From Bacillota bacterium (GTDB lineage Bacteria > Bacillota > Sulfobacillia > JAJYWN01 > JAJZPE01): a stretch of 64,000 bases of DNA. The DNA is taken from NCBI GenBank assembly GCA_036504675.1, contig DASXUT010000147.1:10545-74544 (forward strand). The letters are read 5' to 3'. Positions 54,843 to 64,000 of the stretch are shown here, piece by piece. A model generated the notes under the pieces. It ran no database searches. It was not told the origin of the DNA and was given only the letters and a program-made list of their open reading frames with translations. A program made the translations under genes and the position numbers. How positions within the stretch are numbered: position 1 is the first letter of the stretch; every line of letters begins with the position of its first letter.

Positions 54843-55160
54843 TCAGGCGCCGGCCAGATGGTCCGCCATTAACCCGAGAACCCGATCCAGATAGACCCGG
54901 ATCTCCCCCTCGCTATTGAGGCCGTAATACTTCTCCCGCTCGATTTCCCGAGCGACAGCCTTGATCGCCTCGTCGGCGAACCCGCACCGCTCCAGGGCAG
55001 CGGCCAAACGGCCGGCCGCATCGATGAGCCGGAACGGCCCGTAGTCCTTGGGTTCGTCGGCGAGGAGCTTGGCCGCCGAGAGCATGAAGGTCATCACCTT
55101 GAAGACCTCCCTGGCCAACCTGGCCCGGTCGGCCTCCGGGCCGTTGTCGACCGCGCTCAT
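54843..55160 (-). CDS. hypothetical protein (105 aa), last gene of catabolic cluster
   Basis: ORF track; ATGA overlap with nitroreductase stop; GC3-rich. Confidence 0.4.
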   Translation of the reverse strand: MSAVDNGPEADRARLAREVFKVMTFMLSAAKLLADEPKDYGPFRLIDAAGRLAAALERCGFADEAIKAVAREIEREKYYGLNSEGEIRVYLDRVLGLMADHLAGA

Positions 55161-55702
55161 CCGGCCTCACCTCCAATGAAGGGTTGTCCGAAGCGGTTGC
55201 GATGGGCGACTTCGGCCAGGGGGCGCCGCCGCCCCTGGCGGTCCGGGCCGTCCAGGTACCCCAGGGTCACCAGAAGCTCCAGGTGGACCTCGCTCGGCAG
55301 GCCGAGGAGGCGGGAGACGGTCGGCGGATCGTACGACAGCACAGGGCAGGACCCTAGCCCCGCCGCCTGGGCCTCGAGCAGGATGTTCTGCCCGGCCATC
55401 GCCGCATCCATGGCTGGGAGGTTCTCGCTCCGGTCACCCGGGGCCCGGCGGGATTCATCGATACAGATGGCGATGACCGCCGTCGGCCGGCCGATGATCC
55501 CGGGGGCGAAGGCCATGAGCCGTTCCACCAGCCCCGGGTCGTCAACGGCGATGAAGACGCAGGGTTGGCGCCCCGACCCGCTGGGCGCCCACTGGCCGGC
55601 CTCGATTAGGCGGCTGAGGTCGGCTTCGGGGACTGGCCGATCAGTGAAGCGGCGAGTCGCCCGTCGCGCCTTGATCAGGTCCATGATGCTGCCGGTGCCC
55701 AT
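55157..55702 (-). CDS. nitroreductase-family NAD(P)H-flavin oxidoreductase
   Basis: IKARRATRRF N-terminal motif, 181 aa. Confidence 0.8.
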   Translation of the reverse strand: MGTGSIMDLIKARRATRRFTDRPVPEADLSRLIEAGQWAPSGSGRQPCVFIAVDDPGLVERLMAFAPGIIGRPTAVIAICIDESRRAPGDRSENLPAMDAAMAGQNILLEAQAAGLGSCPVLSYDPPTVSRLLGLPSEVHLELLVTLGYLDGPDRQGRRRPLAEVAHRNRFGQPFIGGEAG

Positions 55703-55705
55703 CTG

Positions 55706-56752
55706 CTATTGTGCCTCCAGCTTCCGGGAGAGGTCGAGCAGTCCGGGGTGAACCACCTTGCCCTCCCGGAGCAGCGCCACGCCTTCCAGCCAGACCGAGG
55801 CGTTCAGGCAAATTCCGTCGGTATGGGACTTGGCCGGGATCCCGTTCGGCGGGGCATCGCTGGGGGCGACATAGCCGAGCCCCCACTCGGTCACTCCCCA
55901 GACCCGCTCATCTTCCAGGACGTTGCCGGTGAGACGGGCACCGGGGTTGAACCCGTAGGCGATGTGGGCCATCCGAAGCATGTTCGGATCGCCGAAGGAC
56001 TCGAGCCAGGCTCGGTAGCGGAGGGCGTCCCGACCGCCGTCGATGGCCTCCACCCGGCCCTCCTTGACCGTCAACCGCACCGGAGCGTCGACGATCCGGT
56101 TCAACGGCGGGCTGATCGTCCCGTCGAAGACGATGACCCCCTCGATCGAGGGGTAAGCCGGACACCAGCTGATCTGGCCGGACAGGAAGTAGACCCCGGG
56201 AACGTCGGCCCGACCGGCGTCGCAAGAGACCGGCCGGGTCGGGTCGTTGAAGAAGTGTACGTCCGTGCCGGCCGGGGTGGTCACCCGCATCTCCTTAGCC
56301 GCCCGAGTCATCTCGGCAACCTTGGTCATGAAGGCCCGCAGCGGCTCGTGGTCGACCCTGCCGATCGTCCTGACCATCATGTCGACGTTCATCCCGACCA
56401 GGCAGATGTAGCGCAGCCGCGGGTTATCCCGGGTGGCCAGCTCAAAGGGGGTCGAATAGAGGAGCCACTGGTTATTGAACTCGATCCAGGCGTCGACCTT
56501 GGTCAGCGCGGCCCCCAGGGCCTCCACCGGCAGGGCCGGGTCGGCCGCCTTGCCGACCCCGGTCGGGCTGGCGACGGTGATGACCATTGGCTTGGCCCCG
56601 GCGGCGTGGGCCGCGGCGGCGGTGGCTTCGACCACCCGCTCGTCGGACTCGGTGTCGGCCGTGATGGCCAGGACCTCTCCGGGCTTCAGCCCCAGGATCT
56701 CACGGGCCAGGATGTTCGCCGCCCGGTGCAGTTCGTATTCGTGGATTGGCAC
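55706..56752 (-). CDS. M29-like (aminopeptidase T/AmpS-like) metallopeptidase family protein, copy 1
   Basis: 348 aa; N-terminal pattern ...LGLKPGEVLAITAD...AGAKPMVITV and C-terminal HTDGI block; paralog of next gene. Confidence 0.5.
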   Translation of the reverse strand: MPIHEYELHRAANILAREILGLKPGEVLAITADTESDERVVEATAAAAHAAGAKPMVITVASPTGVGKAADPALPVEALGAALTKVDAWIEFNNQWLLYSTPFELATRDNPRLRYICLVGMNVDMMVRTIGRVDHEPLRAFMTKVAEMTRAAKEMRVTTPAGTDVHFFNDPTRPVSCDAGRADVPGVYFLSGQISWCPAYPSIEGVIVFDGTISPPLNRIVDAPVRLTVKEGRVEAIDGGRDALRYRAWLESFGDPNMLRMAHIAYGFNPGARLTGNVLEDERVWGVTEWGLGYVAPSDAPPNGIPAKSHTDGICLNASVWLEGVALLREGKVVHPGLLDLSRKLEAQ

Positions 56753-62658: not shown

Positions 62659-63644
62659 GCCGCGAAGTGATCGGGCCCAACCGCGGTCAGGGCCGGACGC
62701 TCGGTCCGGCAGGAATCCGCGGCCTGCGGGCAGCGCGGCTGGAAATGGCAGCCCGGTTCGGGGCGGGTGATCGCCGGTACCGTCCCCTCGATCACCGGGA
62801 GGGTATCCCGCCTCTCCCCCAGGCGTGGGATGGCTTTCAGGAGCAGGTCAGTGTACGGGTGGGCCGGCCGCCTGAAGATCTGCAGGGTCGGCCCGAGTTC
62901 GACGACATTCCCGGCATACATCACCGCCACCCGGTCGGAGACCTTGGCCACCACCCCGAGGTTATGGGTGATGAAGACGATCGAGGCGTTGATCTGCGCC
63001 CTCAATTCGCCGATCAGCCGAAGGATCTGGGCCTGGATGGTCACGTCGAGGGCCGTTGTCGGCTCGTCGGCCAGGAGGAGGTCCGGGTTCGAGGAGAGGG
63101 CCATGGCGATCATCACCCGTTGCCGCATCCCGCCGCTCAACTCGTGCGGGTAGTTCCCGAGGATCTTCTCCGGGTCGGGCAGCCGGACCAGGTTGAGCAT
63201 ATCCAGCGCGCGCTGCCGGGCGGCCCGCCAGGGGACCTTCGCGTGCTGGGCAATCACCCGGGTCAGGGGTTCGCCCACCGCGAAGACCGGGTTCAGCGAG
63301 GACATTGGGTCCTGGAAGATCATCGTGATCTGGTGACCACGGATCTCTCGCATCTCGGCCTCGGTACGCCGCAGGAGGTCCTGCCCCTTAAAAATGATCT
63401 CGCCCGACTCGATCTGCACCTTCTTCTCCGGCAGGAGACGGAGGATTGATAGGGCGGTGACGCTCTTCCCTGAACCGGTCTCGCCGACCAAGCCGAAGAT
63501 CTCCCCGCGGCGGATGTCCAGGCGGCCGATGTCCACCGCCCGGACGTTCCCGCCGAAGGTGCGGAAGGTCACGACCAGGTTTCGGATCTCCAGGATGGGC
63601 TCCCGGTGGGGGATCGGTCCAGCGCTTAAGTCGATCGCCCCCAT
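62634..63644 (-). CDS. oppD: oligopeptide/dipeptide ABC transporter ATP-binding protein (OppD/DppD type)
   Basis: GETGSGKS, LSGGMRQR, C-terminal CHFQPRCPQAADSC. Confidence 0.85.
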   Translation of the reverse strand: MGAIDLSAGPIPHREPILEIRNLVVTFRTFGGNVRAVDIGRLDIRRGEIFGLVGETGSGKSVTALSILRLLPEKKVQIESGEIIFKGQDLLRRTEAEMREIRGHQITMIFQDPMSSLNPVFAVGEPLTRVIAQHAKVPWRAARQRALDMLNLVRLPDPEKILGNYPHELSGGMRQRVMIAMALSSNPDLLLADEPTTALDVTIQAQILRLIGELRAQINASIVFITHNLGVVAKVSDRVAVMYAGNVVELGPTLQIFRRPAHPYTDLLLKAIPRLGERRDTLPVIEGTVPAITRPEPGCHFQPRCPQAADSCRTERPALTAVGPDHFAACWKGVVR

Positions 63645-63645
63645 G

Positions 63646-64000
63646 TTACACTTCCCTCGTCTTCGGGTCGAGGATTTCGCGCAGTCCGTCGCCGACGAAG
63701 TTGAAGCCCAGCACGGTGAGGAAGATTGCCAACCCAGGGAAGGTGACGTACCACCAATTGGTCATGAAGAAGTTGCGCCCGATGCTGACCGTGAGCCCCC
63801 ACTCCGGCTGCGGTGGTTGCGCCCCCAGGCCGAGGAAGCTCAACGAGGCCGCCTCGAGGATGATCGAACCAAAATCCATCGAGGCCTGGACAATGATCGG
63901 GGCGATGGCGTTGGGTAGAACATGACGAAAAATAATCTTGATGGGTGAGACCCCCGTGGCCCGGGCCGCCTCGACGAACCCCCGCTCCCGGAGGGCGATC
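63646..64000 (-). CDS. oppC: partial CDS: C-terminal part of OppC/DppC-type ABC permease (continues beyond window end)
   Basis: ...NAIAPIIVQASMDFGSIILEAASLSFLGLGAQPP...; in-frame upstream of track ORF to window edge. Confidence 0.75.
   Translation of the reverse strand, partial: IALRERGFVEAARATGVSPIKIIFRHVLPNAIAPIIVQASMDFGSIILEAASLSFLGLGAQPPQPEWGLTVSIGRNFFMTNWWYVTFPGLAIFLTVLGFNFVGDGLREILDPKTREV

Follow-up and report, generated by a model that had tools for sequence, protein, structure and literature searches.

Positions 54843-64000 of the 64,000-nucleotide (nt) stretch analysed here, hereafter the window, which comes from contig DASXUT010000147.1 of a bacterium of the phylum Bacillota (class Sulfobacillia, GenBank assembly GCA_036504675.1), are occupied by eleven genes, all on the minus strand. 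Read from 64000 down to 54843, their order is OppC (partial), OppD, OppF, DUF917a, DUF917b, RacA, RacB, NicXa, NicXb, CDOA and CDOB, i.e. components of an Opp-type ATP-binding cassette (ABC) importer are followed by two DUF917 proteins, two racemases, two M29-fold proteins related to NicX and the two subunits of a putative flavoenzyme of the cyclodipeptide oxidase (CDO) type. An identical stretch with concordant gene calls is found in the JGI metagenome contig Ga0376481_001060 (locus L001). The gene calls and this contig agree with the gene content and order given in a preliminary description of the region, made from the sequence alone, and its view of the region as a transporter-coupled enzyme cluster is supported as well. 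That description also had the genes overlapping by 1-8 nt throughout. The junctions are indeed tight and four of them, including DUF917a/DUF917b and CDOA/CDOB, are 4-nt overlaps, but two overlaps are longer (25 nt for OppD/OppF and 14 nt for OppF/DUF917a, with the starts used here), OppC and OppD are spaced by 1 nt, and three junctions are gaps, namely RacB–NicXa (49-103 nt, depending on the choice of the NicXa start), NicXa–NicXb (15 nt) and NicXb–CDOA (3 nt). A search within the cluster gave no promoter-like site, and the number of terminator-like sites was not above that expected from shuffled sequence. Given the tight junctions and the lack of such internal signals, the eleven-gene stretch is best read as a single operon. 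In sequence comparisons, the catalytic or ligand residues are intact in every enzyme of the cluster.

The importer is represented in the window by two ATPases and part of one permease. The OppC-type permease gene (63646..64000) runs off the end of the window and is present as its 3' part; the L001 copy is a 297-aa OppC_N/BPD_transp_1 gene, which ends 1 nt before OppD. The OppD-type ATPase (62634..63644, 336 aa) and the OppF/DppF-type ATPase (61621..62658, 345 aa from a TTG start; 344 aa in the JGI annotation) both combine the ABC_tran (PF00005) and oligo_HPY (PF08352) domains, with Pfam E-values of 1e-20 to 1e-32. The best NCBIfam matches of OppD are OppD/DppD models, all under the equivalog cut-offs, and OppF reaches 397 bits against the dipeptide ATPase model NF008453 (cut-off 408). 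The OppB and OppA genes lie beyond the window end. The JGI contig begins within OppB, thus OppA of the window organism was not recovered; the syntenic loci L008 and L009 contain both genes. The two oligo_HPY ATPases and partial OppC of the window, together with OppB and OppA of L008 and L009, are the features of an Opp/Dpp importer with a family-5 binding protein, a transporter of the type sized for di-/oligopeptide-like solutes.

At the other end of the cluster, CDOA (55157..55702, 181 aa; PF00881, E = 2e-27) is an AlbA-like flavoprotein subunit with the nitroreductase fold, and CDOB (54843..55160, 105 aa), the start of which overlaps the CDOA stop by 4 nt, is an AlbB-like subunit matching PF19585 (DUF6092; E = 4e-20), the family of the CDOB subunits of cyclodipeptide oxidases (PMC11055893). 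The top two PDB matches of CDOA are both CDOA subunits, 9exv_A (2e-25) and AlbA (8uc3_A, 2e-24); designed repeat proteins aside, the solved relatives of CDOB are the AlbB subunits 8uc3_D (E = 4e-6) and 9exv_C. Residues E36, P37, Y40 and R44 of CDOB align with E33, P34, Y37 and R41 of AlbB, in which Tyr37 is the catalytic base, aided by Ser54 of AlbA (PMC11055893). In CDOA, R13, R17, S43 and a C-P-V motif align, through 9exv_A, with R24, R28, S54 and C135-P136-V137 of AlbA; the equivalent of AlbA N55 is Gly, and the position of AlbA Cys115, the covalent 8-alpha-S-cysteinyl anchor of flavin mononucleotide (FMN), is a gap. All CDOs outside clusters with a cyclodipeptide synthase (CDPS) lack this cysteine (PMC11055893), and no cyclodipeptide synthase gene is present in the window cluster. 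Based on the best PDB matches and on the conserved catalytic and FMN-site residues, we consider the nitroreductase and the 105-aa protein to be the two subunits of one CDO-like flavoenzyme of the AlbA/AlbB type, and not, as first described, a nitroreductase and a separate unknown protein. The early guess of hydantoin- or cyclic-dipeptide-like substrates fits with such a pair in the last two positions of the operon. Like AlbAB (albonoursin synthase) and NdasCDO (8uc3, 9exv), CDOAB consists of two subunits of ~180-200 and 105 aa encoded by overlapping genes, and it has in common with AlbAB the Tyr, E-P motif and Arg of the B-subunit as well as the FMN-phosphate arginines, Ser and C-P-V of the A-subunit. 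It differs from AlbAB in having no CDPS partner and no Cys115 equivalent, in its low identity to AlbB (E = 4e-6) and in its catabolic-looking, importer-linked context. In addition, most of the related clusters belong to anaerobes, and the electron acceptor may therefore be other than O2.

RacA (58589..59356, 255 aa) and RacB (57891..58592, 233 aa) both belong to PF01177, with E-values at the 1e-36 and 1e-47 levels (3e-47 for RacB), and are 50% identical to each other. RacA, a hydantoin/allantoin-racemase-like epimerase, matches the allantoin racemase of K. pneumoniae (3qvj, E = 7e-32), and its NCF and GCTG motifs align with the catalytic Cys79 and Cys184 of 3qvj, positions that can be located from the mutant entry 3qvk (C79S/C184S). 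RacB shows the same pair of Cys motifs in its translation, i.e. both proteins combine the PF01177 fold with two catalytic cysteines. RacB in turn matches 3qvj at 3.5e-37 and OpaE (9qbx) at 2e-15, the latter being a match of both racemases (1e-11 to 2e-15). Models of glutamate and aspartate racemases score no better than 4e-5 to 1e-2. These comparisons place RacA and RacB in the clade of hydantoin/allantoin racemases and not in that of free amino-acid racemases. OpaE is a fungal biosynthetic enzyme from the family of Asp/Glu racemases that epimerises a residue within a cyclic peptide-derived ring system (PMC12661438, PMC7530659), a precedent which shows that this family also acts on peptide-derived rings.

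Between the importer and the racemase genes are DUF917a (60483..61634, 383 aa), an S-Me-THD-like protein, and DUF917b (59353..60486, 377 aa), the start of which overlaps the DUF917a stop by 4 nt. Both have the two-domain architecture PF06032 + PF20906 (E = 1e-40 to 1e-53), carry a GTGGGG motif and, in a family alignment of 24 sequences, agree with it at each of its 63 invariant columns; their mutual identity is 48%. The DUF917 family now bears the name S-Me-THD. The AlphaFold2 (AF2) model of DUF917a, with a predicted local distance difference test score (pLDDT) of 92, has a sole solved match, the uncharacterised CV_3147 (2o3i; Foldseek E = 2e-23). The same two-domain family includes the S-methyl-thiohydantoin and thiohydantoin desulfurases of ergothioneine catabolism (NF058532, NF058529), which add water to a carbon of the ring in five-membered cyclic (thio)ureides, and we propose DUF917a as a cyclic-amide hydrolase. 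The window proteins differ from these enzymes in several respects. At 50-85 bits, they are far from the equivalog cut-offs of 440-450 (85/68 and 58/51 bits against NCBIfam cut-offs of 450/440, with 85 bits being the score of DUF917a against the S-methyl-thiohydantoin desulfurase equivalog, cut-off 450); no ergothioneine-catabolic family was matched by any of the eleven cluster genes in Pfam and NCBIfam, and two copies plus a truncated third lie in the one operon.

The third copy is a 5' stub of 29 codons (54718..54807, minus strand) located 35 bases downstream of CDOB and preceded by its own ribosome-binding site (Shine-Dalgarno). In a tblastn comparison it is 75% identical to residues 10-37 of DUF917a, including the GCAILGTGGGGS motif (GTGGGG), and the remainder of the gene is absent from the window. 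Next to the stub is an insertion sequence of ~1.84 kb (52879..54722, minus strand), which encodes a 530-aa DDE transposase (52974-54566; PF01609, DDE_Tnp_1, in the L001 annotation) flanked by candidate 15-nt terminal inverted repeats at 52879-52893 and 54708-54722. Since the DUF917 homology of the stub ends exactly at the latter repeat and the rest of the gene is not in the window, the third DUF917 gene was removed by the insertion sequence, probably with an adjacent deletion. The insertion is also present on the JGI contig, and it bounds and truncates the cluster rather than being a member of the pathway; the next gene after it is SatD-like (52126-52746). An intact CDOA-CDOB-DUF917 adjacency is found in loci L058 and L090, and a similar one in L072, in which CDOB is unlabelled. 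Mobile elements were also seen in Desulfotomaculum nigrificans, where, in one genome, an IS21-type element encoding IstA/IstB interrupts OppD of a homologous cluster (L003, CP002736, 5363-9029) and where, in a second genome, an rve-type integrase lies upstream of OppA. Clusters of this type seem to be frequent targets of insertion sequences.

NicXa (56768..57841, 357 aa when started at a TTG that follows GGAGG; the JGI annotation has 339 aa, with the ATG at 57787 as start) and NicXb (55706..56752, 348 aa) are both assigned to PF26233 (NicX family) in precomputed annotation. The best solved relative of both is NicX/Hpo, a 2,5-dihydroxypyridine 5,6-dioxygenase (7cn3; PMC7910607), which is matched by NicXb at 2e-12 and by NicXa at 4.5e-7 in PDB searches; with a profile, NicXa reaches NicX at 4e-14 and the aminopeptidase PepS at 2.4e-6. 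Against PF02073 (M29), NicXa scores 16.5 bits, under the cut-off of 27, and NicXb has no match. Thus, of the domain calls made in the preliminary description, those to PF06032, PF01177, PF00881 and the ABC families were recovered by profile searches, but M29 fell below its cut-off: the two proteins called M29-like paralogs appear to share the M29 fold, which the Foldseek comparison confirms for NicXb, but their support from PF02073 is weak, their best solved relative is NicX and they represent two different subfamilies.

The metal-ligand sets of the two proteins differ. NicXa has exchanged the first His for Glu and a Glu for His; the resulting set, E/E/H/H/D, is invariant in 34 orthologues. 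A profile alignment of NicXa to PepS brings the 'NLPxGE' and 'HxD' motifs into register, and the 'PxGE', Glu, His and 'HxD' elements of M29 enzymes are kept, which we take to correspond to the published M29 ligand numbers. Judging by these motifs, NicXa looks like a working M29-type peptidase. NicXb shares with the M29 aminopeptidases AmpS, AmpT and PepS the fold, whereas NicXa shares motifs with them; both are under the Pfam M29 threshold and ~60 residues shorter than these enzymes, and NicXb is devoid of the catalytic-site glutamate of the 'PxxE' motif. Foldseek searches with the AF2 model of NicXb (pLDDT 85) returned NicX first (5e-26), followed by PepS, AmpT and AmpS (1e-14 to 1e-17) and then the crocagin protein CgnE (6zsu). 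H263, H310 and D312 of NicXb, invariant in 86 relatives (73 b-type and 13 b-like sequences), align with the Fe(II) ligands His265, His318 and Asp320 of NicX, the ligands and ring-holding residues of which are known from earlier work (PMC7910607). The invariant 'WLLYSTP' loop of NicXb ('LLY99STP') aligns with Leu104-His105 of NicX, His105 being replaced by the invariant Tyr99, D/E178 aligns with NicX Glu177, and position 188, a His in 17 of 18 homologues, aligns with NicX His189. NicXb and NicX thus have in common the His-His-Asp triad, as well as an 'LL(H/Y)S(T)P' loop and an acidic residue that in NicX hold the six-membered lactam ring, and NicXb looks like a metal enzyme holding a small polar ring. 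The two proteins also differ: their identity is 22%, the Ser302 ligand is missing in NicXb, Tyr takes the place of His105, no nic genes are found nearby and the hosts are mostly strict anaerobes. A role of NicXb as a NicX-type dioxygenase was rejected for these reasons, namely the anaerobic hosts, the non-conservation of Ser302 and His105 and the lack of a nic context.

The preliminary description took every enzymatic step to be duplicated and suggested heteromeric enzymes. The paralog pairs are indeed kept together elsewhere, as distinct subfamilies. However, NicXa and NicXb, at 27.5% identity and with their different ligand sets, are different enzymes, and the nitroreductase and the 105-aa protein make up one enzyme. 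Recent tandem duplication was rejected as well, the paralogs being 27-50% identical and belonging to separate subfamilies conserved in other phyla. As for heteromers, the pairs are not obligatory: loci with a single DUF917 or a single racemase are common, and each copy in the window has its catalytic or invariant residues. Because single copies are so frequent elsewhere, obligate heteromers are unlikely for DUF917 and the racemases, and we rejected them.

To delineate the distribution of the cluster type, we used NicXb, which is its best conserved component. There are 1847 NicXb relatives at E ≤ 1e-5 among the scored candidates; in a scan of one genome per species, relatives were found in 544 genomes, and the NicXb loci of the top 80 of these were examined. 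Many of the NicXb relatives, which occur in both bacteria and archaea, are 57-65% identical (range 57-78%). Nearly all hosts of these 80 loci are anaerobes or thermophiles, among them members of the Bacillota, Bathyarchaeia, Caldarchaeales, Thermoplasmata, Atribacterota, Anaerolineae, Caldisericota, Coprothermobacterota and Synergistota. The gene order of the window is repeated in three Bacillota genomes (L011-L013) with 74-76% protein identity, except that CDOB was not detected in L013. Many of the 80 loci have a modular form, in which Opp and NicXb are accompanied, or not, by NicXa or an M20 hydrolase, DUF917, a racemase and CDO. In the 56 loci of at least 13 kb, from which component counts were taken, Opp ATPases are present in 47, a second NicX-family gene in 38, a racemase in 26, DUF917 in 24 and CDOA + CDOB in 19, with all components together in five. 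Typical orders are Opp-NicXb-DUF917a-NicXa, e.g. in D. nigrificans, and Opp-DUF917b-NicXb-(racemases)-DUF917a-(racemase)-NicXa, and a minimal core of Opp, NicXb and NicXa is seen in loci of Caldarchaeales, Atribacterota and Bathyarchaeia. Because the same order recurs in L011-L013 and the modules recur across phyla, the arrangement of these genes is not due to chance.

Many related loci have a single DUF917, one racemase or none, or an M20 deacylase instead of NicXa. The M20 hydrolase neighbours NicXb in 16 loci and matches models of the ArgE/DapE/ACY1 type, not those of carbamoylases or allantoate amidohydrolases. NicXa and M20 occur together in one of 62 loci (Fisher p = 1e-4, to be taken as no more than an indication because of the phylogenetic dependence among the loci), and M20 loci are scattered over many phyla. 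This near-exclusive occurrence suggests a common task for NicXa and the M20 enzyme. In L079, L081, L084 and L085 (e.g. Acidaminococcus massiliensis and Lutispora saccharofermentans), a module around position 10000 consists of NicXb, an M20 deacylase, a PucR regulator and an NCS1 permease of the cytosine/hydantoin type, with no Opp, NicXa, DUF917 or CDO, which suggests that NicXb can act on a small ring brought in by a nucleobase-type carrier. A glycyl-radical enzyme is found in six Thermoplasmata loci; in L038, L050, L051 and L057 it is a pyruvate formate-lyase-like protein of 817 aa that, together with its activase, is encoded between two NicX-family genes 4-9 kb upstream of NicXb, and the same loci carry a racemase and an EamA transporter. 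Finally, a 278-aa protein with no match in Pfam or NCBIfam is encoded in or beside the DUF917/racemase/NicX block of L022, L023, L024, L032, L059 and L064 (Bacillota and Synergistota) and is absent from the window.

Our favoured reading, to which we assign a probability of roughly 45%, is that the operon imports and degrades 2,5-diketopiperazines or similar small peptide-derived cyclic amides, including stereoisomers that contain D-residues. Peptides give rise abiotically to cyclic dipeptides, which also racemise, in settings such as those of the mostly strictly anaerobic and thermophilic hosts, above all in the heat, and natural 5-substituted hydantoins are comparatively rare. In the scheme that we propose, the simplest one to make use of all components, the Opp/Dpp-type system would import the ring compound, and RacA and RacB would epimerise the acidic C-alpha positions of the ring by a two-cysteine mechanism as in hydantoin and allantoin racemases, so that all stereoisomers could enter one route. 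NicXb would then open the ring hydrolytically; the substrate of NicX and diketopiperazine are both 2,5-dioxygenated six-membered N-heterocycles, and since the hosts are mostly strict anaerobes, we infer a hydrolytic reaction, oxygenolytic cleavage being unlikely. DUF917a and/or DUF917b may also open the ring, as their only characterised relatives hydrolyse thiohydantoin rings at a ring carbon. Some archaeal loci without DUF917 encode HyuA/HyuB, an ATP-dependent lactamase/hydantoinase. The resulting linear dipeptide or N-acyl amino acid would be cleaved by NicXa or, elsewhere, by the M20 enzyme of the ArgE/DapE/ACY1 type. The CDO-like flavoenzyme would dehydrogenate ring substrates between C-alpha and C-beta, which could either activate rings that resist hydrolysis or, after opening, route one residue to a 2-oxo acid and ammonia. 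Least certain in this scheme are which enzyme opens the ring and what the oxidase does.

Several observations weigh against the cyclic-dipeptide reading. The minimal core of Opp, NicXb and NicXa or M20 could simply process linear peptides, CDO genes occur in about a third of the NicXb loci, and DUF917 and the racemases in less than half. Under such an account, the operon would serve the catabolism of linear di- or tripeptides that are modified or contain D-amino acids, with NicXa and NicXb as a heteromeric M29-type aminopeptidase, heteromeric paralog pairs in general, racemases acting on released amino acids or peptide termini, and DUF917 and the flavoenzyme in accessory roles. The M29 fold of both NicX-family proteins, the exchange of NicXa for an M20 peptidase and the translational coupling of paralog genes through 4-nt overlaps are all in line with it. 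We nevertheless consider it unlikely. NicXb has no 'PxxE' glutamate and resembles the ring-cleaving NicX in its triad and in having counterparts to the residues that hold the ring, RacA and RacB fall in the hydantoin/allantoin clade (Glu/Asp racemase models reach E-values of 4e-5 to 1e-2 only), the CDO pair and DUF917 indicate ring substrates, and the frequent single copies of DUF917 and racemase argue against obligate heteromers.

Further points against a cyclic-dipeptide substrate concern individual proteins. In NicXb of the window, position 188, corresponding to NicX His189, is Tyr, whereas it is His in 17 of 18 homologues, and the fourth NicX ligand, Ser302, is aligned with Pro or Ala. Characterised CDOs require O2, while most hosts of related clusters are anaerobes (PMC11055893). 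The binding protein of a related syntenic locus has generic NCBIfam matches at the GsiB/NikA/DppA level, and for every component of the cluster type the substrate assignment is drawn from gene families and context. Moreover, the nearest solved relatives of the racemases are allantoin/hydantoin racemases (E = 1e-27 to 1e-37, moderate identity), the characterised DUF917 enzymes act solely on five-membered thiohydantoins (according to the NCBIfam names of NF058532 and NF058529), and PucR-family regulators (14 loci) and NCS1 nucleobase/hydantoin-type permeases (7 loci) recur beside NicXb, hinting at ureide- or nucleobase-like rings. These last observations would fit catabolism of 5-substituted hydantoins or of allantoin-like or purine/pyrimidine-derived five- or six-membered ureides by the classical Hyu logic, as proposed by Andreas and Giessen (PMC11055893), and HyuA/HyuB is encoded in four of the related loci. 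The racemases would then interconvert D- and L-hydantoins, DUF917 would produce the N-carbamoyl amino acid, NicXa or M20 would be the carbamoylase and CDO would oxidise the ring substituent. Yet Opp/Dpp importers, present in 47 of the 56 loci, fit peptide-like solutes, and no carbamoylase-type gene (CN-hydrolase or AmaB type) or ureide enzyme was found among the recurrent neighbours of NicXb loci, the M20 enzymes being of the ArgE/DapE/ACY1 type. In addition, every characterised CDO acts on a 2,5-diketopiperazine scaffold (PMC11055893), the DUF917 scores of 85 and 68 bits are far under the desulfurase cut-offs of 450 and 440, and the cluster has no other gene of purine or ergothioneine catabolism. 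On balance, a hydantoin or ureide substrate is possible, if on the improbable side.

The same cluster might instead be biosynthetic, tailoring an imported peptide precursor into a modified (dehydro) cyclic dipeptide or a natural product of the hydantoin type. Characterised CDOs do tailor cyclodipeptide antibiotics (PMC11055893), the M29-fold CgnE (6zsu) functions in crocagin biosynthesis and OpaE is a biosynthetic epimerase. However, no cyclodipeptide synthase, non-ribosomal peptide synthetase, precursor peptide or exporter was found in the window cluster or among the annotated recurrent neighbours, the transporter is of a type that imports, streamlined anaerobes and archaea living on detrital protein widely carry the cluster, and its modular make-up is typical of catabolic islands. 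We therefore hold a biosynthetic role to be very improbable.

Elsewhere in the window, which has a G+C content of ~65%, there are a flagellar gene block on the minus strand (6581-19353), encoding FlhA, a FliN/FliY-type switch protein, the hook protein FlgE and FliK, and genes for antiporter subunits of the Complex-I/Mrp type (31992-35429). The surroundings of the cluster are therefore those of an ordinary chromosome in a motile bacterium. At 27154-27241, on the minus strand, lies a predicted c-di-GMP-I-GGC riboswitch aptamer (RF03167), with 65.6 bits against a gathering score of 59, and two genes upstream of the cluster region, both on the minus strand, encode proteins of the fumarylacetoacetate hydrolase (42442-43422) and amidohydrolase (46053-47282) families.

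As an observation, the cluster type is already known, in the form of a bioinformatic note. Andreas and Giessen (Nat Commun 2024, PMC11055893) reported that non-CDPS CDO genes occur with PF01177 racemases, DUF917, Opp/Dpp transporters and peptidases, the Pfam families of the latter not being given in their supplement. As in the window, those clusters have an AlbA-like and PF19585 pair in the absence of CDPS, with a CDOA that lacks the covalent-FMN Cys, beside the same set of genes. Their survey took CDOB as its anchor and left the NicX/M29-fold proteins unnamed, whereas in our set NicXb is present in many more loci than CDO (CDOAB in 19 of 56). Thus, the statement in the preliminary description that the pathway is not a described one holds insofar as no function has been assigned in the literature, but the gene association itself had been reported. 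In the literature found, no genes of diketopiperazine catabolism are described, and a 2013 survey states that the enzymes are unknown (PMC3852281). New here are the NicX-family pair as the conserved core, the differing ligand sets of its members, the mutual exclusivity of NicXa and M20, the mainly anaerobic range and the proposal of a diketopiperazine pathway.

A classical Hyu operon encodes a permease, a hydantoin racemase, a hydantoinase and an N-carbamoyl-amino-acid amidohydrolase. The window cluster follows the same logic: after transport, a racemase from the same Pfam family would act on the ring, a hydrolase would open it and a metallo-amidohydrolase would free the amino acid. It differs in that the ring opener would be DUF917 and/or the NicX-like protein instead of a dihydropyrimidinase-type or HyuAB enzyme, the final hydrolase is of the M29 fold (or an ArgE/DapE-type M20) and not a carbamoylase, the transporter is of the Opp type and CDO is added. 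The cluster resembles in its logic a hydantoin-utilisation operon rebuilt from other enzyme families.

Cyclic dipeptides are abundant, serve as microbial signals and antibiotics, arise as by-products of protein breakdown and heating, and are resistant to ordinary peptidases, and the cluster type offers a testable candidate pathway for their use that has cultured carriers, among them D. nigrificans, Thermoanaerobacterium sp. DL9XJH110, Thermanaerothrix solaris, L. saccharofermentans and A. massiliensis. More speculatively, and with the odds rather against it, NicXb could be the missing family of oxygen-independent, hydrolytic 2,5-diketopiperazine ring openers, recruited from the M29-derived scaffold with which aerobes cleave 2,5-dihydroxypyridine oxygenolytically; together with the racemases, DUF917 and an anaerobic CDO-like dehydrogenase, it would then form the first genetically defined pathway of cyclic-dipeptide catabolism, one that many anaerobes and thermophiles recycling dead biomass would have, such as Bathyarchaeia, Atribacterota, Caldarchaeales and Bacillota. 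If true, the catabolic reading of the cluster would give functions to several large orphan families, namely DUF917, anaerobic NicX-like PF26233 proteins and non-CDPS CDOs, would show an oxygen-free use of a dioxygenase/peptidase scaffold and could provide a source of stereo-converting ring enzymes for biocatalysis. It would also be relevant to the recycling of racemised and cyclised peptide debris by microbes of the subsurface and of hot springs.

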